Assembly (NCBI GenBank): GCA_050949565.1
Contig: JBMNFY010000006.1
Span: 32,001 to 96,000, forward strand
Direction: 5' to 3'
DNA length: 64,000 nucleotides
Origin: Kiritimatiellia bacterium
GTDB taxonomy: Bacteria; Verrucomicrobiota; Kiritimatiellia; RFP12; UBA1067
Part shown: positions 17,828 through 59,359 of the stretch, one piece after another
How the letters are laid out: the number at the start of each line of letters is the position of its first letter
How positions within the stretch are numbered: position 1 is the stretch's first letter
Made by a program: the position numbers and the translations under genes
Notes under the pieces: generated by a model
What the model saw: only the letters and a program-made list of their open reading frames with translations
Told to the model about the DNA's origin: nothing
The model's database searches: none

Positions 17828-17852
17828 TCCCAAATCTCAAATCCCAAATTTC

Positions 17853-20069: not shown

Positions 20070-20755
20070 CTACAATTCCCCACGAAAGGCTTTGGCGAGA
20101 AGGGCGGATTGGAATTGCGCAATCTCTTGCGTTGTTTCTGTTTGGAGCGCTTCCAACGCTGTCTGTTTTTCTTGGAAGATGGTCAGTTCGTCAACGATAG
20201 CTTGCTGCCTTTGGATGTCGGGGATCGGTATCTCCAGACTGCTCCAGGCTGACGTTTCAAGTTTTTTGGTGCCGTGGCCAGCGGTTTCGATCATACCTTG
20301 CAAAAGATCATTAGCTCCCCAAAGCATGTGGGCGAGGTAGTCGGCTAAGATGCCTTTGGCTGGCACAATGGCTTTCATGTCCTGATTGATTGCGCACGGC
20401 ACATCGGAAACAGCGACAGGAACGTAACGGGCCAATATCATTCCGCGGACGACAAAGAGCACTGAATGAGCCGGGATCAGCTTGGCGGGAGATTCAGCAA
20501 TCGCGGCTTCGGTGATTGGCATGGACGATGTCGCAATACGAAAGGATTTCATCTCCTTGGGCGCAATCCACGGAATATCGCCATCCCAGAAATCGGCGCG
20601 TTCTTTTGAGGGCGTTCCGCCGCCCATCACTTTGCCGCACTTGCCAAGCGGCCTTGCGGGAAACTCTGATAGAAGCGAGCGATATAGATTCCGCCTTACG
20701 TGGAAAAACAGCGTGGTCATTTTATCCACTGCCGCTTGCCGCAGTTTTCGCGCCC
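20070..20755 (-). pseudogene. hsdS: type I restriction-modification specificity subunit, C-terminal half only
   Basis: GGGTPSK, IPWIAPKEM, AINQDMKAI, LEIPIPDIQRQQAIV and LLAKAFRGEL; only one TRD and no credible start. Confidence 0.8.
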
Positions 20756-21913
20756 CCAGGCGCCGGGTTTGATCTCCTCGCCTTCCCACTCGGCGCCATC
20801 GTAGGTCAGTACGCTCTCGGCGTGGTAGATGCGGTACTTGGAGAGATAGCCGTCATTGATGCCGCGCTGGATGCCGTATTCAAAAGTTGGACGCCCTTCT
20901 TTTTTTACCGCATCCCAGCAGTCGAAAAAGATGTAGGTGTTGCGGATCAGGCGGCGCTCGTGTTCGCTGATCACGTGCAACTCGCCGGGGTTCGGCGTGG
21001 CGGTCAGGCCGATGTGGATGGCGTCGAAATGGCCGAGCGTGGCGCGGTGGGTGTTGTAGATGGAGCGGTGGCATTCATCGGTGACCACGAGATCGAAATA
21101 GCCGTGGCCGAATCCGTTGCCGCCGAGCTGCGAGGCGATGGTGTCCAGCGTGCCGACGACGATCTGCCCTTCCAGACTGCGCTTGCCGCCGTAAAGGATG
21201 GTTGTCGGCCAGTCGCGCAGATATTCGTCAAAGGTCTCCTTGGCCTGCTTGGCCAATTCGATGCGGTCGACCAGAAAGAGCACGCGGGAGATGATCGCCG
21301 TTTGCAACCAGCGTTTCATCAACATGGCGATGGTCAGGGTCTTGCCTGTGCCGGTGGCCATTTCGAAGAGCATGCGCCGTCGGCCGGCGATGAGCGCGTC
21401 ATCCGCTTTTTTCAGGCATTCAAGCTGATAGGGGCGCGCTTCGATCTCCTCGCCCTTGAAAACGAAACGGCTGGGCAAAGATTGAAGCGAGAGGCTCTGC
21501 CGGATGTCGCCCTTGCGGTGGAGCTTGATGTTGGCCCGCCGTTCGAGGTCGGCCTGTGAAGGAAAGCCCATGACGGGGCGGGCGTCGCCATCGGCGTAGT
21601 CCCAGAAGTAGTGTTCCTGGCCGTTGCTCAGGATGACAAAAGGCGCATTCAGCGATTGGGCATACGCCTTGGCCTGTTCTTTGGCGGTGTAGGGGTCGAT
21701 GGTGAAACGCTTGGCTTCGAGAACGGCAAGCGGGCGGCTGCGGGTATCCTTCAAGAGGTAATCGGCACGCCCGTCGGCGGTCGGTTCTTCCGTGGAGACC
21801 TGAGCCTTGTCGGTGATGCGCCAACCTGCCTGCTCAAGCAGCTTGTCGATCAACATGCGGGCGTCGGCTTCTGTGCTCATGAATTGCGTTCCTGGTTGTG
21901 TCATTTGCCCCAA
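20717..21913 (-). pseudogene. hsdR: type I restriction endonuclease subunit R (EcoEI-like), C-terminally truncated
   Basis: GRADYLL/VLEAK nuclease, RPYQ, MATGTGKT, LFLVDR, DECHRS and GLTATP motifs; helicase C-terminal domain is missing. Confidence 0.85.
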
Positions 21914-22095: not shown

Positions 22096-23304
22096 GCGGA
22101 GCGTCGGGAGGGACGAGCGTCGCTCGTCCGGGCGGCGTTTTACGCCGCCATCACGGGCAAGATGCCCGTGCCACATCTAGTCACCCGTCTCGCGGAGCAC
22201 TGGGAGGGGCAAGCGTCTGCTTGCCCGCGGACGAGCAGACGCTCGTCCCTCCCCAGCGGCGCGCACTGGGAGGGGCAAGCGTCTGCTTGCCCGCGGACGA
22301 GCAGACGCTCGTCCCTCCCCAGCGGCGGTCACGCCGCCACCCCGTAAAAAAATCTCTGCGCCTCCGCGTCTCTGCGTTAAAAACCGACGAAGTGTAGGGA
22401 CTAAGTGTTGCTCTGCTTTTTCGCCGCTGCATAAGCCATTCATCCGTCTCGCGGAGCGCCGGGAGGGACGAGCGTTGCTCGTCCGGGCGGCGTTTTACGC
22501 CGCCATCACGGGCAAGATGCCCGTGCCACATCTAGTCACCCGTCTCGCGGAGCACTGGGAGGGGCAAGCGTCTGCTTGCCCGCGGACGAGCAGACGCTCG
22601 TCCCTCCCCAGCGGCGGTCACGCCGCCACCCCGTAAAAAAATCTCTGCGCCTCCGCGTCTCTGCGTTAAAAAACCGACGAAGTGTAGGGACTAAGTGTTG
22701 CTCTGCTTTTTCGCCGCTGCATAAGCCATTCATCCGTCTCGCGGAGCACTGGGAGGGGCAAGCGTCTGCTTGCCCGCGGACGAGCAGACGCTCGTCCCTC
22801 CCCAGCGGCGGTCACGCCGCCACCCCGTAAAAAAATCTCTGCGCCTCCGCGTCTCTGCGTTAAAAAACCGACGAAGTGTAGGGACTAAGTGTTGCTCTGC
22901 TTTTTCGCCGCTGCATAAGCCATTCATCCGTCTCGCGGAGCGCCGGGAGGGACGAGCGTTGCTCGTCCGGGCGGCGTTTTACGCCGCCATCACGGGCAAG
23001 ATGCCCGTGCCACATCTAGTCACCCGTCTCGCGGAGCACTGGGAGGGGCAAGCGTCTGCTTGCCCGCGGACGAGCAGACGCTCGTCCCTCCCCAGCGGCG
23101 CTCACGCCGCCACCCCGTAAAAAAATCTCTGCGCCTCCGCGTCTCTGCGTTAAAAAACCGACGAAGTGTAGGGACTAAGTGTTGCTCTGCTTTTTCGCCG
23201 CTGCATAAGCCATTCATCCGTCTCGCGGAGCGCCGGGAGGGACGAGCGTTGCTCGTCCGGGCGGCGTTTTACGCCGCCATCACGGGCAAGATGCCCGTGC
23301 CACA
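22096..23304. repeat. mosaic REP/BIME-like tandem array, module order A-B-B-C-A-BC-BC-A-BC-A
   Basis: A = 96 bp (22096, 22451, 22935, partial 23225); BC = 194 bp (22547, 22741, 23031); junctions share CCGTCTCGCGGAGC; modules contain multiple 8 bp-stem hairpins. Confidence 0.92.
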
Positions 23305-24013: not shown

Positions 24014-24235
24014 GTGATGGCATGGATGGATGCGGAGTTTTGTGAGTCGCGTTGCCCGGTGTGTACGCGGGCGCGGCGGGGCAACCGGCTGGCCAAGCTG
24101 TTGCAGAAGCTGGAGATGGCGTTGACCGGCGGCGGCTGCCCGGCGGGCCGGGCGCGACAGCGGAAATACGGCGTGCGCCCGGATGAACCGCTACCGCGCG
24201 ACCGCGCGTGCGCGGCGCGTGGAGTTAGGAGTTAA
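24014..24235 (+). CDS. small Cys-rich hypothetical protein
   Basis: GGAGG RBS; CxxxCPVC...CP pattern; 73 aa. Confidence 0.55.
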   Translation: MMAWMDAEFCESRCPVCTRARRGNRLAKLLQKLEMALTGGGCPAGRARQRKYGVRPDEPLPRDRACAARGVRS

Positions 24236-24312
24236 CATTTAGGATTTAGGAGTTTCCTGAACAGCCGGAAAAAATTCCTAAAATTGCTCTCACCTCTTAC
24301 CTATTACTTCTT
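24221..24312. repeat. 7-mer tandem tracts between convergent genes
   Basis: (T/G)TTAGGA units followed by TTAC(C/T)(T/A)-rich 7-mer units. Confidence 0.6.
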
Positions 24313-25831
24313 ACTTACCTATTACTTTTTCCGCGATGGCGGCGCAGGTCGGGGCGGAGGCCAGCAGCGACGTGAAGTCGAGCCGCTCTTCGATCGCGCG
24401 CTGCGCGGGCGTGGCAAGGTCGGCATGGCCGACAAGCAGTGCGCCGACCATGCGGTTGTCGCGGAAGACGAAGGCACGGTAGCGGTCGGGCAGATCCTCT
24501 TCCAAAAACAGTTCGCTGCCGTCTTCCGGCTGGAAGCGGCCGATACTGGTGAGATCAAGGCCGACGGCCTTGATGGTGCTGCTGCGGGGCAGACCGTCGA
24601 AGCGCGCGTTGCCGCCGACGGCATTGCGTCCGGCGATCGTGCCTTGCATCTGCGCAGCGGTCCACAGTCCGTAAAGCTGGCCGTCGAACTCAGCCACGTC
24701 ACCGGCGGCATACACGCCGTCGACCGAGGTGGCGAGCGCGTTATCAACGACGATGCCGGTGTTGACCTTGATTCCGGCCTGATGCGCTAGCGCGATGTTC
24801 GGACGCACACCGATGGTAATCACTGCGAGGCGTGCGGGCAGACGGTGGCCATCAAGCAGTTGCACAGCTTCGAGCGCTTTCTCGCCTTCAAGGGACTGGG
24901 TTTGCGCCTGCTTGAGGATCGTGATGCCGATTCCGCTCAGGTGGCGCTCCAGGTGTGCCGCTGCGGCGGCGTTGAGCTGGCGCTGCATGAGCCAGTCGCT
25001 GCGTTCGAGGAGGGTGACGGCCGCGCCGCACCGCGCCAACGCGGCGGCGGTCTCGATACCCAATACGCCACCGCCGATGCAGATGCAGGGCGTGCCGGGC
25101 GTGAGGCGAGCGAGCAATGCGTCCGCGTCGGTGACCGTGCGCAGGCTGAAGACGCCGTCAAGTTCGATGCCGGGTAGCGGCGGCATGTTGGGGGATGCGC
25201 CTGCGGTGAGCATCAGGCGGTCGTACGGCAGCGTGGTGCCGTCGGCGAGCGACGCCGTGCGCGCGGTGGTGTCGAGTTGCGTGACCTGCGCACTGCGCAG
25301 CAGGCGGATGCGTTGTTCGGCGTACCACGCTTCGGGATGGATGGGCAGCGCATCGCGCGTGATTTCACCGGCTAGGTAGCGGGTGAGGCTGAGGCGGTAG
25401 TAGGGCAATCCCTTTTCGGATGAGACCAGCGTGATCTCGGTGGAGGGCGACGCGGCGCGTGCAGCTTCGGCGGCGGCGAGGCCGGCGATGCCGCCACCAA
25501 CGATCACGAGGCGCGCGGTGGTTGCGGCTGACGCGGTTGACGCGACCGGTGCGGCTTCGGTTTCGACTTTCTTGAAGCACTCGGGTTCTGCACCGCAAAC
25601 GGGGCAGGGGTCTGGCGGTTCCGGCCCTTCGTGGACGTAGTTGCAGAGCAGGCAGCGCCAGCGCGTCTGTGCGAGGCCCGACGCGGCTTCTGTGCCCGGT
25701 GCCGCGTAGGGCTTGAAGTCTCCCGGTCCGGCACCGCAAACGGGACAGCGATCCGGCGGTTCATTTCCGGTATGGATGTAACCGCACGGGACACAGCGCC
25801 ACTGGCGTATGGAGGTTGGTTGCTCGCTCAT
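24311..25831 (-). CDS. FAD-dependent NAD(P)H oxidoreductase with two N-terminal rubredoxin-like domains
   Basis: WRCVPCGYIH...CPVCG and WRCLLCNYVH...CPVCG; IVGGGIAG, IGGGVLGIE and YAAGD motifs. Confidence 0.9.
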   Translation of the reverse strand: MSEQPTSIRQWRCVPCGYIHTGNEPPDRCPVCGAGPGDFKPYAAPGTEAASGLAQTRWRCLLCNYVHEGPEPPDPCPVCGAEPECFKKVETEAAPVASTASAATTARLVIVGGGIAGLAAAEAARAASPSTEITLVSSEKGLPYYRLSLTRYLAGEITRDALPIHPEAWYAEQRIRLLRSAQVTQLDTTARTASLADGTTLPYDRLMLTAGASPNMPPLPGIELDGVFSLRTVTDADALLARLTPGTPCICIGGGVLGIETAAALARCGAAVTLLERSDWLMQRQLNAAAAAHLERHLSGIGITILKQAQTQSLEGEKALEAVQLLDGHRLPARLAVITIGVRPNIALAHQAGIKVNTGIVVDNALATSVDGVYAAGDVAEFDGQLYGLWTAAQMQGTIAGRNAVGGNARFDGLPRSSTIKAVGLDLTSIGRFQPEDGSELFLEEDLPDRYRAFVFRDNRMVGALLVGHADLATPAQRAIEERLDFTSLLASAPTCAAIAEKVIGK

Positions 25832-25876
25832 GTCGGAAATCTCCTGAACGTCTTGCTGACGAGTGACAAAGTAGGG

Positions 25877-26767
25877 TCAGCTCCGCTTGGCGCGCAGTTC
25901 GTCGGCCTTCGCGATAATAAAGTCGGAGAGGGCGGGGGCGATCTCGGCGTCTTGGAGCGCGTAGAGGATGTTGGTTTTAATGAAATCGAGGGTGTTGCCG
26001 GCATCGTGACGGCGCGCCTGTACGCGACAGCCGTGCATGGGGTGTCCGTCGGCCACGCGCGCGCGCAATGCATCGGTGATCTGGATCTCGCCGTTCTTTC
26101 CAGGCGGGACGGCGTCGATGTAATCGAAGATGTCGGGCGTGAGGATATAGCGGCTGGCGACGGCGAGGTTCGAGGGGGCTTCGGCAGGAGCGGGTTTTTC
26201 GATCATGTCGCGGATGCGGTAGGTGCGGTCGTCGAGTGCATCGCCGGCGATGATCCCGTAGCGGCTGACACGCTCGGGCGGCACTTCTTCGAGCGCGACG
26301 ACGCAACCGCCGAAACGGTCATGCACGTCGATGAGCTGGCGCGTGGCCGGCACGCCGTCAAGACTCTGCATCAGGGTGTCGCCGAGGAGGACTGCGAAAG
26401 GTTCGTCACCCACATGGTAACGCGCGCAGCGGATGGCGTCGCCGAGGCCGAGCATCTTGCGTTGCCAGACGAAGTGGATGTGGGCCAGTTCGGAGATGGC
26501 GCGGATGCTGGCCAGTTCCTTGAGTTTACCTTTGGCCTCCAGTTCCAGTTCCAACTCGAAGTTACGGTCGAAGTGCTCCTCCAAGGTGCGCTTGCCTCTG
26601 CCGATCACCATCAGGATATCGGTGATGCCGGAGGCCACGGCCTCTTCGACCACGTACTGGATGACCGGTGTATCGACGATCGGCAGCATCTCCTTGGGTG
26701 CCGCTTTGGTGGCGGGCAGGAAGCGCGTACCGAAACCGGCGGCGGGAATAACAGCTTTGGTAACCAT
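25877..26767 (-). CDS. galU: UTP--glucose-1-phosphate uridylyltransferase family
   Basis: KAVIPAAGFGTRFLPATKAAPKEMLPIVD, LGLGDAI, LLGD, IEKP and GEIQITDA. Confidence 0.92.
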   Translation of the reverse strand: MVTKAVIPAAGFGTRFLPATKAAPKEMLPIVDTPVIQYVVEEAVASGITDILMVIGRGKRTLEEHFDRNFELELELEAKGKLKELASIRAISELAHIHFVWQRKMLGLGDAIRCARYHVGDEPFAVLLGDTLMQSLDGVPATRQLIDVHDRFGGCVVALEEVPPERVSRYGIIAGDALDDRTYRIRDMIEKPAPAEAPSNLAVASRYILTPDIFDYIDAVPPGKNGEIQITDALRARVADGHPMHGCRVQARRHDAGNTLDFIKTNILYALQDAEIAPALSDFIIAKADELRAKRS

Positions 26768-26793
26768 GGGAAAACTCAACTCTCAATTTTCAA

Positions 26794-27789
26794 TCAGACG
26801 ATGACAGGTTTGAGGACGCGGATGTTTTGGGGCGCGAAAGCCTTGGCCAGCCGCTCGTACATGGCATCGTCGGTGTAAGTGCCGATGATGGCACCACCGG
26901 AGCCGGTGAACTTGGCGGAGGCACCTACCTCGCGCGCGGTTTCGACCATGCGCAGATTGCCCTCGCTGAGCTTGAAGATCTGGCGGCGGCGGTCGAAGTT
27001 GGCGTCCATCAACGCGGCAAGGGTGGGCCAGTCGCCCTCCGCCAGCGCGGTACGCGCCTGCACGGTGATGTCGGCCCAGAAGTTCATGGCGTCCACGACC
27101 TCCTTCTCGCCGCGGTTAAAACGGTCGCGGATGTTGTTGTGGAAGACTTCCGAGCCTTCCGAGAGGTCGGTGCGGTAGGCGATATAGAGCGGCGGCAGGT
27201 TGGAAATTTGCAGCGGCTCATAGCGGCCAAAGCCCTGGGTCTCGAGCAGCGTCTTATCGAAGTCCATGAAGACGACGCCTTGATAGACCTGCGCCACGCG
27301 GTCTTGCAGACCGGCGGCGATGCCCAGTTCGCGGGTCTCGACGGCGCGGATCAGGTTGGCGAGTTGAGGCTTGGGGATGGTGACTCCGTAGAAGGCCAGC
27401 AGGGCGCGCATGGTCGCCGTGATGATGGCACTGGAGCCGGCCAGGCCGACGAGGTTGGGGATGTTGGTGTCGTAGCGGATGGTGAAGTTGTTGTCGTGCA
27501 ACTCAATCTCATGTTCCTGGCAATAGCCGTAGAAGCACTTGATGGCCGACTTGAGCAGACGGATACCGCCGTAGTAGCCGAAAAGCCGCACGTCGTCGTA
27601 CAGCGACTGGATACTGGCGAAGACCGATCCGTCGCGACGGCAGGGCACGATCTCCAGGTCAGGCGACTCATAGAGCGTGACGCGCGCGGAAAAATTCGAA
27701 AAGGTAAAGGCAATGGTCTTTCCGAAATAACCATCGGAAGGATTCCCGATGAGCGCTGCGCGAGGATATGAGGTCGTGCGTATGATCAT
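26794..27789 (-). CDS. GHMP kinase, glucuronokinase-like
   Basis: [49 protein letters not shown] and KFTGSGGA match recalled plant glucuronokinase motifs. Confidence 0.8.
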
Positions 27790-27800
27790 GGCGACAGAGC

Positions 27801-27870
27801 AGTTAGGAGTTAGGAGTTAGGATTTAGGATTTAGGATTTAGGAGTTGGGAATTGGGGGTTGGGAGTTTTG
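27801..27870. repeat. 7-mer tandem repeat (AGTTAGG/ATTTAGG)n
   Basis: About ten consecutive heptamers, degenerating toward icd, between the icd stop and the GHMP kinase start. Confidence 0.85.
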
Positions 27871-27899
27871 ACTTCCTTTTCTCCGTCGGCCTATTCCGC

Positions 27900-29165
<1,266 letters not shown>

Positions 29166-29271
29166 GGTCGCTCTCTCCAAAAAAAGACATGAACGTTGAA
29201 AAGTCGCGCCAGTATACGGGATACCGCCGACCTTGGCAAACCGGATGTTGTTCGGGCTTGCAGGTTCCGGC

Positions 29272-29300
29272 TTGCATATCGCGCGAACGTCTGATACTTT
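29272..29300 (+). promoter_or_regulatory. putative promoter of tRNA-His
   Basis: TTGCAT-17 bp-TACTTT ending 15 bp before the tRNA. Confidence 0.4.
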
Positions 29301-29315
29301 ACCCACATCTTTCAT

Positions 29316-29578: not shown

Positions 29579-31354
29579 ATGAGCCGTAAGGTTTTGTTGT
29601 CAGCAAATGAGGCGGTCGCATGGGCGGCCTGCAAGGCGGGTTGTGCTGTGGCGTCGGCCTATCCCGGAACGCCGAGTACCGAGATTCTTGAGCAAGTGGC
29701 GAAGTTCAAGGACTCGATCTACTGTGAGTGGGGCGTGAATGAAAAGGTCTCGATGGAGGTCGCCATCGGCGCCTCGATCGCTGGCGCACGTGCACTGACC
29801 GCCATGAAGCATGTGGGCCTCAATGTGGCGATGGATCCGCTGATGACCTACACGTATGTCGGCGCGAACGGCGGTCTGGTGGTGGTCACGGCCGACGACC
29901 CCGGCATGCACAGCTCGCAGAATGAGCAGGACTCGCGCAATCTGGTCAAGTTCGCGCGCGCCGCGCTCTTCGAGCCCGCCGACAGCCAGGAGACCTTTGA
30001 CATGGTGCAGGCCGCGTTCGAGGTCTCGGAGCAGTTTCAAGTGCCGGCGTTTGTACGGCTTTCGACCCGGACGTCGCACACCTCGACGGTCGTGGATGTC
30101 GGTGACGATTTCGGGCCGGGGTACCCGGAGCGCAAAGAGTACGTCAAGGATATTCGGCGCTACATCCCCGTTCCGATGTTTGCGCGTCCTCAGCGTCTGA
30201 AGGCGCAGGAGCGTACCGCTGCCTTGCGTGCTTTCGCCGGTGAGACGCCGTTCAACCGCGTCGAGCGCGGTGACGACCGTCTCGGCATCATCACCTCCGG
30301 CGTGACATACCAGTATGTGAAGGAGGTCTTCCCTGAGTTCAGCGTGCTCAAGCTGGGCTTCACCAATCCGTTGCCGATTGAGCAAGTCAAAGCGTTTGCG
30401 GCGAGTGTGGAGCGTGTACTGGTGATTGAGGAACTGGATCCGTTCCTAGAGGATCAGGTGCGGGCGTTGGGTATCAAGGTGGTCGAGCATGCGACCGAGT
30501 TGAACATGCACGAGATGAATCCGGTGCGCCTGACCGCGTTGCGCAAGGAGTTACTCGGCGATGTCGAACTGCCCGTCGTTACGCGTGCGGACGCTGGTCT
30601 GCCGACGCGTCCGCCGGTGCTCTGCGCCGGTTGCGGCCATCGCTCGGTCTTCTACACGCTGGCTAAGTTGGGCGCGACCGTTACGGGCGACATCGGATGC
30701 TACACGCTGGGCGCGTTTCCTCCGCTCAACGCGATGGACACCACGATTTGCATGGGGGCCTCCGTCGGCAATGCCTACGGTATGGAGAAAGCCGGTAAGA
30801 GCGGGCGTCTCTGCGCGGTGATCGGCGACTCGACCTTCTTCCACTCCGGCATGACCGGCATCCTGAACGTGCTCTACAACGGCGGCACGATCACCACGAT
30901 CGTGCTCGACAACCGCATTACCGGTATGACCGGCCATCAGGACAATCCGGGCTCCGGGCGTACCCTGCGTGGCGATCCCGCGCCGGTTACGGACATTGCA
31001 GAAATCGCCAAGGCGATGGGCTTCAAGCGCGTGGTGAGTGTAGATGCGTATGACATGGCCGCCTTGGAGCGCGTCCTCAAGGAGGAGCTGGATGCGCCCG
31101 AGCCGTCGGTCGTGATCGCCGGCGGCCCTTGCCGCATTGCCGCCAAGCTGACGAACGCCGGCACTTTCGAGGTGGACGCGGAGAAGTGCAAGGCCTGCGG
31201 TGCCTGCTTCAAGTTGGGCTGCCCCGCGATTGAGCGCGGCGAGCCGACGCCGGACGGCAAGCGGTTCAAGTCGCGCATCGATCCCGTGCAGTGCGCGGGA
31301 TGTACCATGTGCGAGCAATTGTGCAAATTTGGAGCGATCAAGCGGGTGCGGTAG
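29579..31354 (+). CDS. iorA: indolepyruvate ferredoxin oxidoreductase subunit alpha
   Basis: AYPGTPSTEI, NEKV, MKHVGLNVA, SSQNEQD, RPPVLCAGCGHR, GDIGCY, GDSTFFHSG and C-terminal 2x[4Fe-4S] motifs. Confidence 0.95.
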   Translation: MSRKVLLSANEAVAWAACKAGCAVASAYPGTPSTEILEQVAKFKDSIYCEWGVNEKVSMEVAIGASIAGARALTAMKHVGLNVAMDPLMTYTYVGANGGLVVVTADDPGMHSSQNEQDSRNLVKFARAALFEPADSQETFDMVQAAFEVSEQFQVPAFVRLSTRTSHTSTVVDVGDDFGPGYPERKEYVKDIRRYIPVPMFARPQRLKAQERTAALRAFAGETPFNRVERGDDRLGIITSGVTYQYVKEVFPEFSVLKLGFTNPLPIEQVKAFAASVERVLVIEELDPFLEDQVRALGIKVVEHATELNMHEMNPVRLTALRKELLGDVELPVVTRADAGLPTRPPVLCAGCGHRSVFYTLAKLGATVTGDIGCYTLGAFPPLNAMDTTICMGASVGNAYGMEKAGKSGRLCAVIGDSTFFHSGMTGILNVLYNGGTITTIVLDNRITGMTGHQDNPGSGRTLRGDPAPVTDIAEIAKAMGFKRVVSVDAYDMAALERVLKEELDAPEPSVVIAGGPCRIAAKLTNAGTFEVDAEKCKACGACFKLGCPAIERGEPTPDGKRFKSRIDPVQCAGCTMCEQLCKFGAIKRVR

Positions 31355-31374
31355 CCGATCACATTCTTCTTATT

Positions 31375-32490
31375 ATGGGTAAAAAAAAGACATTCAAATA
31401 TCCGCACGGGACGCCGATACGTACCGATATGGAACCGCTTTTGGCTTTTGCTAACGCCCATATCGGAAAGTTGCTGTCGGCTTCGCTGGTGTGCGAAATG
31501 GCGGATGTCGAATCGCCCAAAACGCATGACTGTTTGCTGCGCAACGGTGTGACTTTACTGACTCACCGTGAATGTCCGGGGTTGTTGCAAAACGGTCAGA
31601 TGCTTTTTTGGCCGGCAGATGATGATCGGCCAGAGGTGAGCAGTTCGAGCCCGCCTGTGTCGGCGTATGATCCTAATGACGGACGACGCTTTGTTCCAGA
31701 GCGTAAACTTAGGCTCAGCGATATCAAGAACACGCTTTTCGAAGGTGATTGTCTGGAGATATTGCCGTTTTTTCCCGATGCCTGCGTAGACATGGTGCTA
31801 TGTGATCTGCCTTACGGGACAACTCAAAACAAATGGGACAGTCTTATCCCTTTGGATCCACTTTGGGAGCAGTACCGCAGGATTCTTAAGCCGAGAGGTG
31901 TCGTGGTGTTAACCGCGCAGGGGATTTTCACTGCCAAAGTTATTTTGAGCAACGAGGCGTGGTTCAAATACAAAATCGTCTGGGAAAAATCCAAGCCGAC
32001 AAATTTCTTGAACGCCAAAAGACAGCCGCTCAGAAAACATGAAGATGTGTGTGTTTTTTATGCTAGGCAGCCGGTCTACAACCCGCAGATGAATAGTGGC
32101 GCACCGTACGATAAAGGAGTGCGGAAAAACCAGTTGTCCGGCAGCTACGGTGATTTCCAGCCAGCGCGTGTAAAGAGCAGCGGTACGCGCTATCCTACGG
32201 ACGTGGTCTATTTCAAAACAGCCGAGAGCGAAGGGCCGGTGTGGCATCCTACGCAGAAACCTGTGGAACTCGGACGGTATTTAATTCGGACGTTTACCGA
32301 GCCTGAAGCACTGGTGCTTGACAACGCATTTGGGAGCGGGAGTTTTCTTGTCGCTGCTGCGCTGGAAGGGCGGAGTTATACCGGCATCGAACGCAATCAG
32401 GATGTGCATTTGTTCAAAAAGGTTCAAGTTGATTACGTGGGGGTCGCGCGCGAGCGAATCAGAAGTATAACGGCAAAAAAACAAAAATGA
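31375..32490 (+). CDS. site-specific DNA methyltransferase (N6/N4 family, beta class) with N-terminal extension
   Basis: GDCLE, LCDLPYG (motif IV), HPTQKP, VLDNAFGSGS (motif I); AT-richer than flanks. Confidence 0.88.
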   Translation: MGKKKTFKYPHGTPIRTDMEPLLAFANAHIGKLLSASLVCEMADVESPKTHDCLLRNGVTLLTHRECPGLLQNGQMLFWPADDDRPEVSSSSPPVSAYDPNDGRRFVPERKLRLSDIKNTLFEGDCLEILPFFPDACVDMVLCDLPYGTTQNKWDSLIPLDPLWEQYRRILKPRGVVVLTAQGIFTAKVILSNEAWFKYKIVWEKSKPTNFLNAKRQPLRKHEDVCVFYARQPVYNPQMNSGAPYDKGVRKNQLSGSYGDFQPARVKSSGTRYPTDVVYFKTAESEGPVWHPTQKPVELGRYLIRTFTEPEALVLDNAFGSGSFLVAAALEGRSYTGIERNQDVHLFKKVQVDYVGVARERIRSITAKKQK

Positions 32491-32497
32491 CACCACG

Positions 32498-35257
32498 ATG
32501 AGAAAACGTACTACATCTTACAACGAACGTGCGTGGGCGATTGACGTGATCAATGAAATCAATCGCTGGGCGGAAATGCGTTCGCGTGCAGTGCGTTCTG
32601 CGGGCGGCGAATGGGGGCTCGCGTCGAGTGAAAAGGGAAATACGTTATTTCCGGATGTGTTACTCTTTGGCGATGCGGCAAAGAATGCTGTGTTACAGGG
32701 ATGGGAACTCAAGATGCCCGATACGCCTGTAACAGACCGTACCTTAATTGACAACGCCAGACAAAAGGCGACTCGGTTAGGTCTGAGTTCGTTTCTTGTA
32801 TGGAATGCGGTAGATGCCGCGTTGCACAGGATTGAAGGCGAAGACAGCGTTGTTATGCGCACTTGGCGGTGCGATAAAATCAGGAGGCGTGATGACGTTC
32901 AACACAATTGTGACGAATGGCGCAAAACCCTCCTGCAGATTCTCGACGATGTGTGTGATTTTGTAGAAAGAGATGATATTTCTCGTTGTAAACCGCTACC
33001 CGAAAAGTTAAACGATGTGGTGGCCGCTATTCTATCGGACACGGTGGGGGTTGTCTCAGATCGTTTAAATGCCGAATACCGCTGTTCAAAGCGTTGGCGG
33101 ACACATGTTGATTCTTGGTGGGCGGATGTAAAAGCGGCACATGACGAAAAACATCTTGCAGTTAATGACGCAACTTGTTTTTCCTTTCTTGCGTCCGAAA
33201 TTCTATTGCATTGGATACATCGCTTTCTGTTTGCTCATTACTTGAAAAGATTTTCCAAGGAAGCAGTCAGCGTCGAGAATTTGATAGGAACGGCCACCAT
33301 TCAAGATGCGGAACATTTTTTCTTGGAACTGTCGATGAGGCGAGACTATGCGCAGGTCTTCGGTACTAGACAAGGAGCCGCATTGCTTCCTGACGCCGCT
33401 TGGCGGTCCTTATTGGCATTCAATAGCTTCCTGAACGCTGTGAGGTTGTCTGACATCAGTCAGGATTTGTATCACGAGTCGTTGCAGTCGGTTGTCCGTG
33501 CAAGCCAACGTAAGCTGTCTGGACAATTCTGTACGCCTATTAAACTGGCCCGGCTATTGGTTGCGCTTACTGTCGATAACCTCGAAAAACCTGTTCTTGA
33601 TCCTTGTTGCGGAACAGGGACTATCGCTCGGGCGGTGTTAGATTTGAAAACCAGCGTCGGCATTCCTACGGTAGAGGCAACCAAAACAACCTTTGCCTCT
33701 GACCTTCACCCCATGCCTCTACAATTTGCGACGTTGGCGCTTGCTTCCGGCGACTCGCCGTTTGAAACGATCCGCGTATTTCAGCGTGATGTTTTTGAAA
33801 TTAGAACCGGAGAAGATATATGTTTTGTGGATGCTCGAACCGGTCAGAAATGTAAAGAAAAATTGCCGGAGTTTACATGCATTGTTATGAATCCGCCGTT
33901 TATTCGGTTTGAAAATTGGATGAAAAGTCCGATTGTCAGACAACTTAACGAAAAGATTTTAGTTGATACAGGCGTTCCTATCGACGCTAAAGCGGATTAT
34001 TTTGTGCCCGTTACACTTGCCGCAAGCAGACTGCTTCCGCCTGATGGGCGGTTGGGCGTAATTTTCCCCAACACATGGCTCGGCGCTGGGTGGGCAAAAA
34101 CATTCAGGGCTCAAATTCTTTCGTTATTTGCTGTGGAGACGATTGTCACATCCGGTAATGGTCGGTGGTTTGCCGATGCGAAGATTGTCACACAACTTGT
34201 CGTTATGCGGAAGCGTCGACAAGGAGAATGTGCTCAAGATTCCGACGAAACAGTTTTCGCAGTTACCCAAAATCCGGTCGCTCATTGGACGGCAGATTTG
34301 GCTGTCAGCTTGAATAGCAACTCGTCAACAGACCAATCCGGAGTTGTGTCCCGTTTTAAGCTGACGCATTCGCGAATCCGGAAGCTGGAAAGTTCCGGGT
34401 TGAGTTGGGCGGCATTTTTTGTGGATTTAGCTTGGTTTGATCAGGTTGAGCCGTCACTTGTTCGCATCTGTAAGCATTTCACGGTGGCTCGTGGAGAACG
34501 CAGAGGTTGGGATCCTTTGTTTTATCCACCTGCAGACTGTGGCGTCGAAAAAGATTATCTCCGTCCTGTCCTGAAAACATCAGCATCTGTGAGGCGCTTG
34601 CAGGCAGCCCCAGACGCTTTTGCGTTCTGTTGTTCAAAAACTCTTGATGAATTGAGCGCTTTGGGTCATCGAGGTGCTTTGTCTTGGATCAGAAAGTTCG
34701 AGCGTGCTGTTAATAAAAAGGGGAAGCCTTTGGCCGAGGTTTTAAAGCGTTCTGGACAGCACTGGTATGAAATGCGTCCTGATACTGTTGCCGACCTGGC
34801 GGTTTCTATCAATCCAGGTTCTCGTCTGTTTTTCATTCGATTGACTGAGCGGGCGTTTACCAATCAACGATTGACGCGGCTTGCAGCTCGAAAAACCACT
34901 GATCTTGATTTGTGTCACGCTTTGCTTTGTTCCTTCATGGGATGCTTTTATTTGGAGGCTATCGGATTCGGTCGCGGATTAGGGGCTCTGGATTTGAGCG
35001 CAACGCGAGTTCGAGACCAATTTTGGATGCTTGATCCTGATCGAGTGACTCCAGTACATCGAAAGCGTATACTTGCGGCATTCGATAAGTTGAAAAGACG
35101 AGATGTTTTTGACCTTGAAAAGGAAGCGGCACAGACCGACCGTAGACAATTTGAAGAATCTGTCTTGGCCGCATTTGGATTGAAAGAGATTCTTCCAGAC
35201 CTTGAGAAGGCGTTGTTGACGCTTTACCGTATTCGAAATTGTGTTAAAAAGGATTGA
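32498..35257 (+). CDS. type IIG-like restriction endonuclease-methyltransferase fusion
   Basis: N-terminal PD...ELK (FPDVLLF...GWELK), GQFCTP, VLDPCCGTG, MNPPF (gamma class), C-terminal TRD-like region. Confidence 0.78.
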   Translation: MRKRTTSYNERAWAIDVINEINRWAEMRSRAVRSAGGEWGLASSEKGNTLFPDVLLFGDAAKNAVLQGWELKMPDTPVTDRTLIDNARQKATRLGLSSFLVWNAVDAALHRIEGEDSVVMRTWRCDKIRRRDDVQHNCDEWRKTLLQILDDVCDFVERDDISRCKPLPEKLNDVVAAILSDTVGVVSDRLNAEYRCSKRWRTHVDSWWADVKAAHDEKHLAVNDATCFSFLASEILLHWIHRFLFAHYLKRFSKEAVSVENLIGTATIQDAEHFFLELSMRRDYAQVFGTRQGAALLPDAAWRSLLAFNSFLNAVRLSDISQDLYHESLQSVVRASQRKLSGQFCTPIKLARLLVALTVDNLEKPVLDPCCGTGTIARAVLDLKTSVGIPTVEATKTTFASDLHPMPLQFATLALASGDSPFETIRVFQRDVFEIRTGEDICFVDARTGQKCKEKLPEFTCIVMNPPFIRFENWMKSPIVRQLNEKILVDTGVPIDAKADYFVPVTLAASRLLPPDGRLGVIFPNTWLGAGWAKTFRAQILSLFAVETIVTSGNGRWFADAKIVTQLVVMRKRRQGECAQDSDETVFAVTQNPVAHWTADLAVSLNSNSSTDQSGVVSRFKLTHSRIRKLESSGLSWAAFFVDLAWFDQVEPSLVRICKHFTVARGERRGWDPLFYPPADCGVEKDYLRPVLKTSASVRRLQAAPDAFAFCCSKTLDELSALGHRGALSWIRKFERAVNKKGKPLAEVLKRSGQHWYEMRPDTVADLAVSINPGSRLFFIRLTERAFTNQRLTRLAARKTTDLDLCHALLCSFMGCFYLEAIGFGRGLGALDLSATRVRDQFWMLDPDRVTPVHRKRILAAFDKLKRRDVFDLEKEAAQTDRRQFEESVLAAFGLKEILPDLEKALLTLYRIRNCVKKD

Positions 35258-35258
35258 A

Positions 35259-35297
35259 GGAGAAGAGCATGGGAGAAGAGCATGGGAGAAGAGCATG
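35259..35297 (+). repeat. three tandem copies of 13 bp GGAGAAGAGCATG (RBS + ATG)
   Basis: Exact copies at 35259, 35272 and 35285; the last ATG starts iorB. Confidence 0.9.
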
Positions 35298-35891
35298 AGT
35301 GAGAAAGTCACAAACGTTTCTTTAGTGGGCGTGGGCGGTCAGGGCATTCTGCTCACCAGCGATATTCTGGCGCGGACAGCGGCGTTGGCCGGACTGGATG
35401 TGAAGAAGAGCGAGATCCACGGGATGGCGCAGCGCGGCGGCAGTGTGATCAGTCAGGTGCGCTTCGGCGAAAAAGTGTACTCGCCGATCATCCCGGACGG
35501 CGCCAGCAACCTGCTGGTTGCGTTCGAGCGGCTGGAGGCCCTGCGTTGGCGGCATCTGCTCGCGGCGGACGGCAAGGTGCTGATCAACGACATGAACATG
35601 ACGCCGGTCACGGTTTCGAGCGGTCAGCAGGCGGCGGTGACGGATCTGGATGACCGCCTGCGCACTGAATATCCGTCCGCGCTGTATGTTGACGCGCTGA
35701 CGATCGCCAAGGAGATGGGCAACACGCGCACGATGAACATGGTGTTGGCGGGTGCGCTCTCGACTCTGACGCCGTTCAGCGCCGAGTTGTGGCAACAGGC
35801 GATGCGTGAGCGCATCGCGGCCAAGTTCATTGATCTGAACCTCAAGGCGTTTGAGGCGGGACGCGCACGCGGCGCGGCGTCGGCGTCCTGA
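35295..35891 (+). CDS. iorB: indolepyruvate ferredoxin oxidoreductase subunit beta
   Basis: GVGGQGIL, SEIHGMAQRGGSV, FERLEALR and NLKAFEAG. Confidence 0.95.
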   Translation: MSEKVTNVSLVGVGGQGILLTSDILARTAALAGLDVKKSEIHGMAQRGGSVISQVRFGEKVYSPIIPDGASNLLVAFERLEALRWRHLLAADGKVLINDMNMTPVTVSSGQQAAVTDLDDRLRTEYPSALYVDALTIAKEMGNTRTMNMVLAGALSTLTPFSAELWQQAMRERIAAKFIDLNLKAFEAGRARGAASAS

Positions 35892-58908: not shown

Positions 58909-59340
58909 ATGGACAAAATCTACCTTCTGGCTTTTGGTGCTGTATGCGTCGTTACCTATCTTTGTTTTGGGAGTCGGCTTTATGTTAGGCTGGCCGTGGC
59001 GGGCGGATTTTTTCTGTGTTGGGCATGTGTTTTCCCCAATATGCAGTTTAACACTGCGTACGTGATGGCGAACTGCGTCACTTCTTTTACACAGCACATT
59101 TCTGAATTGTTGAAGGCTGAAAAATATGAGGACGCGAACAAAAAACTGACAGCGTTCAATTTGGGGTTCCGCTCCGTAGTCACAGATGAAATGGAGATGA
59201 GGCGGTTTGTTGAGAACCTCATCGCACTAAGAGAGAAAGTCCCAAGGGAACAAAGTAGGATTCAGAGCACTCCCCCAATGTCTAAAAAAACGTCCAACGC
59301 CGAACGCCGAAGTGGAAAAATCCTAAATCCTAAATCCTAA
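58909..59340 (+). CDS. hypothetical membrane protein
   Basis: GGGAG RBS then MDKIYLL; two TM segments then a helical domain; C-terminus runs into 7-mer repeats. Confidence 0.5.
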   Translation: MDKIYLLAFGAVCVVTYLCFGSRLYVRLAVAGGFFLCWACVFPNMQFNTAYVMANCVTSFTQHISELLKAEKYEDANKKLTAFNLGFRSVVTDEMEMRRFVENLIALREKVPREQSRIQSTPPMSKKTSNAERRSGKILNPKS

Positions 59341-59359
59341 ATCCTAAATTTCTAACTCC
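59289..59359. repeat. 7-mer tandem tracts
   Basis: AACGTCC-AACGCCG-AACGCCG then (AAATCCT)x4. Confidence 0.75.

Follow-up and report, generated by a model that had tools for sequence, protein, structure and literature searches.

In the 64,000-nucleotide stretch of DNA analysed here (the window; positions 32,001 to 96,000 of contig JBMNFY010000006.1, assembly GCA_050949565.1, from a sediment-type Kiritimatiellia bacterium), a gene for a GHMP-family kinase (P0001) lies immediately upstream of, and on the same strand as, a galU-like gene (P0002). We consider it probable that the two products form a two-step salvage module that converts glucuronate (GlcA) to GlcA-1-phosphate (GlcA-1-P) and then to UDP-glucuronate (UDP-GlcA). 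The basis for this reading is homology, gene linkage, gene fusions, co-occurrence, a distribution complementary to that of UDP-glucose dehydrogenase (Ugd), and presence in RNA libraries. The locus comprises the following features:

26794-27789, minus strand: GHMP-family sugar-1-kinase of the glucuronokinase (GlcAK) family, P0001, 331 aa, ATG start
26780-26793, minus strand: intergenic spacer sequence from the kinase stop to the GalU start
25877-26779, minus strand: GalU-family UTP:sugar-1-phosphate uridylyltransferase, P0002, TTG start; an ATG start at 26767 is likelier
27900-29315, minus strand: isocitrate dehydrogenase (icd), the first of four minus-strand genes in a row
24311-25831, minus strand: oxidoreductase of 506 aa, rubredoxin-fused, pyridine-nucleotide type, directly downstream of galU

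Both open reading frames (ORFs) exist at the coordinates that an earlier note on this DNA had given, and, as it stated, on the same strand. Its 26-bp gap is right when P0002 is read from the ATG, which lies four codons downstream of the TTG and is where alignments of P0002 with its homologues begin; measured to the TTG, the gap is 14 bp. The median gap among 54 relatives with GalU directly downstream of the kinase is ~27 bp, and the two genes look like a single operon.

The product of the first gene matches the Pfam families GHMP_kinases_N (PF00288, 50.7 bits) and GHMP_kinases_C (PF08544, 29.5 bits), conserves the GHMP ATP-binding motifs and reaches the cut-off of no NCBIfam model. The earlier note had held, from five motifs including KFTGSGGA, that this protein matches plant glucuronokinase far better than galactokinase (GalK). 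All five motifs are found in P0001 and align with glucuronokinase 1 of Ziziphus (47% identity over 306 residues, E 4e-87), and identity, profile scores and phylogeny agree with the claim. Identity to the Carassius "glucuronokinase with putative uridyl pyrophosphorylase" (GKUP) is 50%; both comparisons use named orthologues as stand-ins for the enzymes that were themselves assayed, those of Arabidopsis and zebrafish. When the Ziziphus protein was searched against the window's genome (G000), P0001 was the sole match (E 4.6e-77). P0001 is thus the reciprocal best match of the glucuronokinases and closer to them than to any other GHMP subfamily, the best of the others (HddA and mevalonate kinase) scoring E 1e-11 to 1e-13. 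A profile of the glucuronokinase family gives its members 296-533 bits, as against 15-23 bits for GalK and the bifunctional fucokinase/GDP-fucose pyrophosphorylase (FKP).

In a tree of 40 rows, built by a quick method with SH-aLRT support only, the glucuronokinase-like proteins were compact, with the eukaryotes in one clade (support 99) and P0001 inside a bacterial clade (support 95), and the branches to GalK, FKP and IspE were several-fold longer than this group. The placement of the kinase with the plant and fish glucuronokinases, and not with GalK, fucokinase or IspE, was therefore borne out by phylogeny, while HddA, also named in the earlier comparison, was set against P0001 by profile and PDB score only. 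A HMMER search of the whole library with P0001 returned 537 cluster representatives at E <= 1e-30. The nearest named relative (90% identity) is in a Kiritimatiellia metagenome-assembled genome, the protein atlas gives the P0001 clusters only generic GHMP and heptose-kinase names, and a sequence search of the PDB returned no solved structure of the GlcAK family. Many bacterial homologues are already named glucuronokinase by JGI, and homologues from Verrucomicrobium, Solibacter and Dyadobacter were listed in the 2010 Arabidopsis paper (PMC2823444, seen in excerpt). As judged by sequence, membership of P0001 in the glucuronokinase family is solid, and it is already on record rather than new.

The other GHMP kinases of the window's genome are IspE, GalK and a fucokinase-like protein. 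The galactokinase gene adjoins a phosphoglucomutase-family gene (G000:C7:20346-23726), and the fucokinase-like gene (C17:1819669-1822875) matches the bifunctional FKP model over its C-terminal two-thirds only.

Linkage of the two genes was followed through 301 sampled genomes of the phylum, in which the kinase was called at E <= 1e-20 and a close GalU at E < 1e-50. The kinase is found in 76 genomes and a close GalU in 71, of which 70 have both; one genome (G199) has the GalU without the kinase, and in six the kinase occurs but no close GalU. None of the 76 kinase-bearing genomes carries more than one close GalU. In 54 of these 76, GalU lies directly downstream on the same strand, with gaps of 12-205 bp. 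It lies upstream in three, two of which are cases of a divergent nucleotidyltransferase 23 bp upstream, and elsewhere in 15; of the four remaining genomes, two show a weak match only and two no match. When one genome per species was scanned, at least 585 kinase relatives were recovered. Among the best 80 of these loci, GalU is downstream in 68 (66 within 500 bp), upstream in one and missing from 11, in one of which there is no room downstream. These 80 loci represent at least six named phyla, with members of the Kiritimatiellia, Lentisphaeria, Verrucomicrobiia, Opitutales, Chthoniobacterales, Planctomycetota, Bacteroidota, Chlorobiota, Chitinivibrionales and Leptospirales. Conservation of the pair in the Planctomycetes-Verrucomicrobia-Chlamydiae (PVC) bacteria, which the earlier note had made a mark of the idea, thus extends beyond them, to Bacteroidota, Chlorobiota and Spirochaetota among others, and the module seems to pass from one phylum to another with both genes together.

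The two activities are also found joined in one polypeptide. Proteins in which the kinase is fused to a GalU-type NTP_transferase domain (P0144, P0288 to P0294, P0300 and P0315) are encoded on long prokaryote-like contigs of up to 407 kb. Among 48 long kinase relatives examined, 32 carry the fish-type domain, one carries the GalU type, and the other 15 gave no match to either query; in eukaryotes the same kinase is fused to a different nucleotidyltransferase, as sequence comparison and excerpts of the zebrafish study indicate (PMC3938481). That the two genes of the window are neighbours by chance, or through shared regulation only, is scarcely credible. No other sugar genes stand beside the pair in the window, as such an account would have it, but because the adjacency recurs, in conserved order and strand, in 54/76 genomes and 68/80 loci across several phyla, chance is not its cause, and neither the fusions nor the presence of the kinase in 70 of the 71 close-GalU genomes fits an adjacency devoid of functional meaning.

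A second account accepts a true glucuronokinase and assigns the uridylylation of GlcA-1-P to an unlinked PF01704 enzyme, akin to the UDP-sugar pyrophosphorylase (USP) of plants, the neighbouring GalU being merely a co-regulated UDP-glucose pyrophosphorylase (UGPase). A PF01704 USP is reported to perform this step in plants (PMC6329318, in excerpt), the window's genome holds one such gene, unlinked to the pair, and P0002 resembles canonical GalU enzymes, and the UGPases tested are reported in excerpts of PMC12203929 to be specific for glucose-1-phosphate (Glc-1-P). We nevertheless think this unlikely. PF01704 (eukaryote-type UDPGP/USP) genes are found in 262/301 genomes irrespective of the kinase, whereas GalU travels with it, and because of this contrast GalU is not the general UGPase of the phylum. 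In two families (f9 and f11) the pair was present in 7/8 genomes scored and a PF01704 match in 0/8. The GalU-type domain, moreover, is the one fused to the kinase in some bacteria, and in three genomes a gene for UDP-glucuronate decarboxylase (UXS) lies directly beside a GalU-like gene, with the kinase elsewhere (G194, C21:21977-23763; G074, C3:28047-29803; G068, C90:37431-39238).

Bacterial UDP-GlcA is generally taken to come from Ugd. In the window's genome we found no recognisable Ugd, the sole NDP-sugar dehydrogenase being Cap5O/UDP-ManNAc-dehydrogenase-like (227 bits, against 112-125 bits for UDP-glucose dehydrogenases), and P0002 is the only GalU. Neither the ugd nor the second galU that the earlier note had raised as possibilities was thus found there, yet an enzyme that needs UDP-GlcA is present: a UXS gene lies at G000:C2:28106-29083 (E 1.7e-104 to human UXS1). 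The genome also encodes two short-chain dehydrogenases/reductases (SDRs); next after 5u4q, their best-ranked PDB entries are the 6zl6 series and MoeE5, which we take to be UDP-GlcA 4-epimerases, a label that the search itself did not supply. Apart from the pair, nothing recognisable in this genome appears to supply UXS with UDP-GlcA.

The same complementarity is seen across the sample. With Ugd called by the TuaD model at E <= 1e-60, Ugd-like genes are present in 247/301 genomes. Among genomes with the kinase, Ugd was found in 40 and not found in 36; among those without it, the figures were 207 and 18 (odds ratio ~0.1, which like the genome counts is uncorrected for shared ancestry). UXS occurs in 279 genomes, 236 of them with Ugd, 34 with the kinase and no Ugd, and nine with neither. 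One of these nine is G199, whose GalU is of the same "GDT" type as P0002 (see below). Of the 43 genomes that carry UXS and lack Ugd, 34 have no candidate source of UDP-GlcA other than this kinase, and the route may therefore exceed the side salvage first suggested. The pattern holds at close range: in the window's family, G000 included, Ugd was not found in 9/10 kinase-bearing genomes (8/9 with G000 set aside) and was found in 2/3 without the kinase, and in one genus (g63, 19 genomes) it was not found in 13/14 with the kinase and was found in 5/5 without. Ugd lies beside UXS in four genomes (G197, G245, G173 and G161), and in G238 (C8:5169-7555) it lies 26 bp upstream of the kinase.

These distributions also bear on a third account, in which the kinase acts on another sugar (glucose, galactose, xylose or some other C1 aldose) and the pair makes UDP-glucose or a neutral UDP-sugar. 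It would suit a GalU that is canonical by sequence and a kinase only 47-50% identical to characterised orthologues. There is a precedent in Solitalea, where a promiscuous GalK and a glucose-1-phosphate uridylyltransferase (GPUT) are reported to salvage xylose (PMC11267548, in excerpt), and galK and galM lie near the pair, as does a GntR regulator, in some Bacteroidota and Chlorobiota loci. This account nevertheless leaves unexplained the complementary distribution of Ugd, the pathway hole ahead of UXS, and the adjacencies of Ugd to the kinase and of UXS to GalU. The window's genome, besides, is already equipped for neutral sugars with GalK, a phosphoglucomutase-family gene and a PF01704 enzyme, and the plant and fish enzymes are reported to be GlcA-specific (PMC2823444 and PMC3938481, both in excerpt). 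We judge it improbable.

For glucuronate itself, a GH115 glucuronidase-family gene and a uronate isomerase gene (UxaC) are present in the window's genome, and with these two genes a supply of free glucuronate in the organism is plausible; a GH67 alpha-glucuronidase was not found there.

The sugar site of P0002 carries a further, suggestive signature. P0002 belongs to the Pfam family NTP_transferase and carries a "GDT" variant (D134, T135) of the xDD motif of these enzymes. In B. subtilis YngB, glucose is reported to be contacted by Asp134, Gly172, Glu191 and Val204, with Asp133 as Mg ligand and Lys192 also named (PMC7961091, in excerpt). The aligned positions of P0002 are conserved as D134, G175, E194, K195 and V207, with one exception, Asp134 of YngB being replaced by T135, so that the full set of ligand-contacting residues is not found in P0002. 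Residues at position 135 were distributed as follows, the Spirochaetota being represented by 121 genomes:

Kinase-adjacent GalUs (89): Thr 86, Cys 1, Asn 1, Ser 1, Asp 0
Unlinked or upstream partners in kinase genomes, plus G199 (18): Thr 11, Ala 7
Evaluable fusions (9): Cys 8, Ser 1
Kinase-linked Spirochaetota GalUs (2): Thr
Unlinked Spirochaetota GalUs (28): Asp in 28/28
Solved UGPases in the alignments (five: YngB, 5vct, 5i1f, 2ux8, 3juj): Asp

One Spirochaetota genome (G380) holds both types of GalU, a kinase-linked "GDT" form and an unlinked "PDD" form. On sequence grounds, loss of the carboxylate next to the sugar would be understandable in an enzyme that binds a uronate. The residue-135 signature marks the kinase-associated GalU group; for altered specificity it is only suggestive and no proof. 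The D131A mutation nearly abolishes activity in the Pseudomonas enzyme (PaUGP), according to excerpts of PMC11796359.

We infer from these data both substrate specificities and a role for the Asp-to-Thr change. The GHMP kinase would phosphorylate free D-glucuronate at C1 with ATP to give alpha-GlcA-1-phosphate, which the GalU-family enzyme would join to UTP to yield UDP-glucuronate. This product would be the substrate of UXS and, probably, of UDP-glucuronate 4-epimerases with genes at other sites in the genome, and the module would stand in for Ugd in the window's genome and many of its relatives, with free glucuronate presumably derived from degraded glycans. The passage from glucuronate to UDP-GlcA that the earlier note had proposed is in this way supported by comparative evidence independent of it. 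Whether the idea can be widened is for us an even call: GalU enzymes in which xDD is replaced by (G/A)D(T/A/C/S) may form a subfamily of dedicated UDP-glucuronate pyrophosphorylases, which with glucuronokinase would replace Ugd in a sizeable share of the Verrucomicrobiota/Kiritimatiellia and probably of the Planctomycetota and Bacteroidota.

Several observations weigh against the salvage module. P0002 scores above the cut-off of the NCBIfam GalU equivalog TIGR01099 (346.7 versus 326.8 bits), as an ordinary GalU would, and its best PDB match is YngB (E 1.8e-85), a proven UGPase. Six UGPases, a subset of the eleven enzymes in PMC12203929, are reported in the excerpts available to show <10% activity with GlcA-1-P. 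Thr135 is not decisive either, because the Asp is not universal: Klebsiella GalU has Val138 at this site, and its V138A/D mutants are reported to retain 61-67% activity (PMC11796359, in excerpt). An identity of 47-50%, judged as such, does not guarantee that the kinase keeps the sugar specificity of its orthologues, the fused zebrafish pyrophosphorylase is reported to have very low activity in vitro (PMC3938481, in excerpt), and the literature searched held no assay of a bacterial member of either family. The window's genome is 92% complete, and a Ugd might be unassembled. The genome counts and the odds ratio carry the phylogenetic caveat given with them, and the pair's neighbours in the window (icd and the rubredoxin-fused oxidoreductase) are unrelated to sugars. 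Finally, no endogenous source of glucuronate was found: myo-inositol oxygenase (MIOX, PF05153), by which the plant route proceeds, gave no match in the window's genome or in any of the 301 genomes of its phylum (0/301), in a search whose control genomes were also silent and which thus does not show absence.

Comparison with known systems sets the pair between several of them. Arabidopsis glucuronokinase (At3g01640) and USP follow the same logic, a sugar-1-kinase and then a UTP-dependent pyrophosphorylase (PMC2823444, in excerpt), and the kinase belongs to the same family, with 47% identity to the plant orthologue and all motifs in common. The partner differs, being a ~300-aa GalU-type enzyme in the window's operon and a PF01704 USP in plants, and in 36 of the 76 kinase genomes the route of the window's type seems to be a substitute for Ugd and not a parallel to it. 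In zebrafish GKUP the kinase domain (50% identical to P0001 by way of the carp orthologue) is tied to a short bacterial-type nucleotidyltransferase. This N-terminal domain is not GalU-like (BLASTP E 0.024 to P0002, with no GalU family match), and the window does not have a fusion of the eukaryotic GKUP type, its kinase and GalU being separate genes; the bacterial fusions use a GalU-type domain. The bacterial GalU enzymes YngB, PaUGP, KpUGP and HpUGP share with P0002 the Mg-binding Asp, G175, E194 and K195. The second Asp of xDD, which contacts glucose in YngB and HpUGP and is essential in PaUGP, is Thr in P0002 and Thr, Ala, Cys, Ser or Asn in its kinase-associated relatives, and a GalU of this kind travels with the kinase and is not a universal housekeeping gene. 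Solitalea GalK and GPUT (PMC11267548, in excerpt), like the window pair, combine a GHMP anomeric kinase with a nucleotidyltransferase to make an NDP-sugar from a free sugar. These enzymes and FKP differ from the window pair in kinase subfamily and in sugar. FKP of Bacteroides is said to produce its NDP-sugar directly from the free sugar, as a fucokinase/GDP-fucose pyrophosphorylase. The literature searched yielded no report of a bacterial glucuronokinase-GalU module or of a GalU that uses GlcA-1-P.

UDP-glucuronate is the precursor of UDP-xylose, UDP-galacturonate (UDP-GalA) and many capsules and exopolysaccharides. If the wider idea of a dedicated subfamily that replaces Ugd holds, the bacteria concerned would derive all their UDP-GlcA, UDP-xylose and UDP-GalA from scavenged (or unexplained endogenous) glucuronate without an NAD-dependent oxidation. 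If the module acts as proposed, a broad set of polysaccharide-degrading anaerobes would make glycans of their own with glucuronate set free from what they digest. Glycan breakdown would then be tied directly to synthesis, from which a dependence on external glucuronate may follow. Hundreds of genes now named "GHMP kinase", "mevalonate kinase" or "GalU" would receive corrected names, and the position of the Asp-to-Thr change would be a candidate determinant of sugar specificity in GalU-type enzymes. The pair would also provide a compact, NAD-free bacterial set of enzymes, natural fusions included, for UDP-GlcA biocatalysis, for which the cascades of PMC6888640 and PMC11868170 use Arabidopsis enzymes.

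RNA libraries bear on expression of the locus. Three runs, one from each of three studies (biogas and anaerobic-digester metatranscriptomes), gave contigs that bridge the junction between kinase and galU, among them a single 3.8-kb contig that spans both genes; one contig extends from the rubredoxin-fused oxidoreductase gene through the kinase and galU. Such contigs fit co-transcription and do not prove a single transcript. A scan of 25600-28100 for sigma-70-like promoters gave no site, and terminator-like matches in it were unconvincing. The intergenic region at 27801-27867 holds a tandem array of the heptanucleotide TCCTAAA/TCCTAAC (9.6 copies), whose end lies ~12 bp ahead of the start codon of the kinase. 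Further intergenic arrays of this unit lie at 24221-24254, 59318-59349 and 17828-17849, and a 17-base pattern built from it occurs nine times in the window, against zero expected. Because unrelated metatranscriptome contigs cover it to very high depth, we regard the array as a common low-complexity repeat. The oxidoreductase downstream of galU comprises two N-terminal rubredoxin-like (RUBY_RBDX) domains and a rubredoxin-reductase-type flavoprotein.

The surroundings of the pair are different in Planctomycetota, where SDR epimerase/dehydratase genes (11 loci) and DegT aminotransferases (five loci) follow it and a NusG-like gene and a phosphomannose isomerase sometimes precede it, a context that looks like a polysaccharide-synthesis setting. 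The downstream SDR was considered as a UXS or an epimerase; it scores below every NCBIfam equivalog cut-off and is left unnamed.

Elsewhere in the window, two DNA methylase/restriction-modification genes (N6_N4_Mtase, and a 919-aa N6_Mtase/Eco57I-like protein) occupy 31291-35257, flanked by a ferredoxin-oxidoreductase gene with thiamine pyrophosphate-binding (TPP)/POR_N domains (29579-31354) and a POR gamma-type gene (35241-35891). The GC content is 0.48 at 32001-34000, compared with ~0.6 elsewhere, and this drop suggests that 31291-35257 is an inserted restriction-modification island. Fragments of a type I restriction system lie at 20070-21913, namely an S-subunit-like ORF and a 398-aa HsdR N-terminal/ResIII ORF that is seemingly too short for a full HsdR. 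A tandem repeat at 22197-23304 (period ~484 bp, 2.1 copies, 98% matches), in a ~2-kb stretch without an ORF of at least 150 aa, contains 66-bp and 194-bp sub-repeats with GC-rich inverted repeats.

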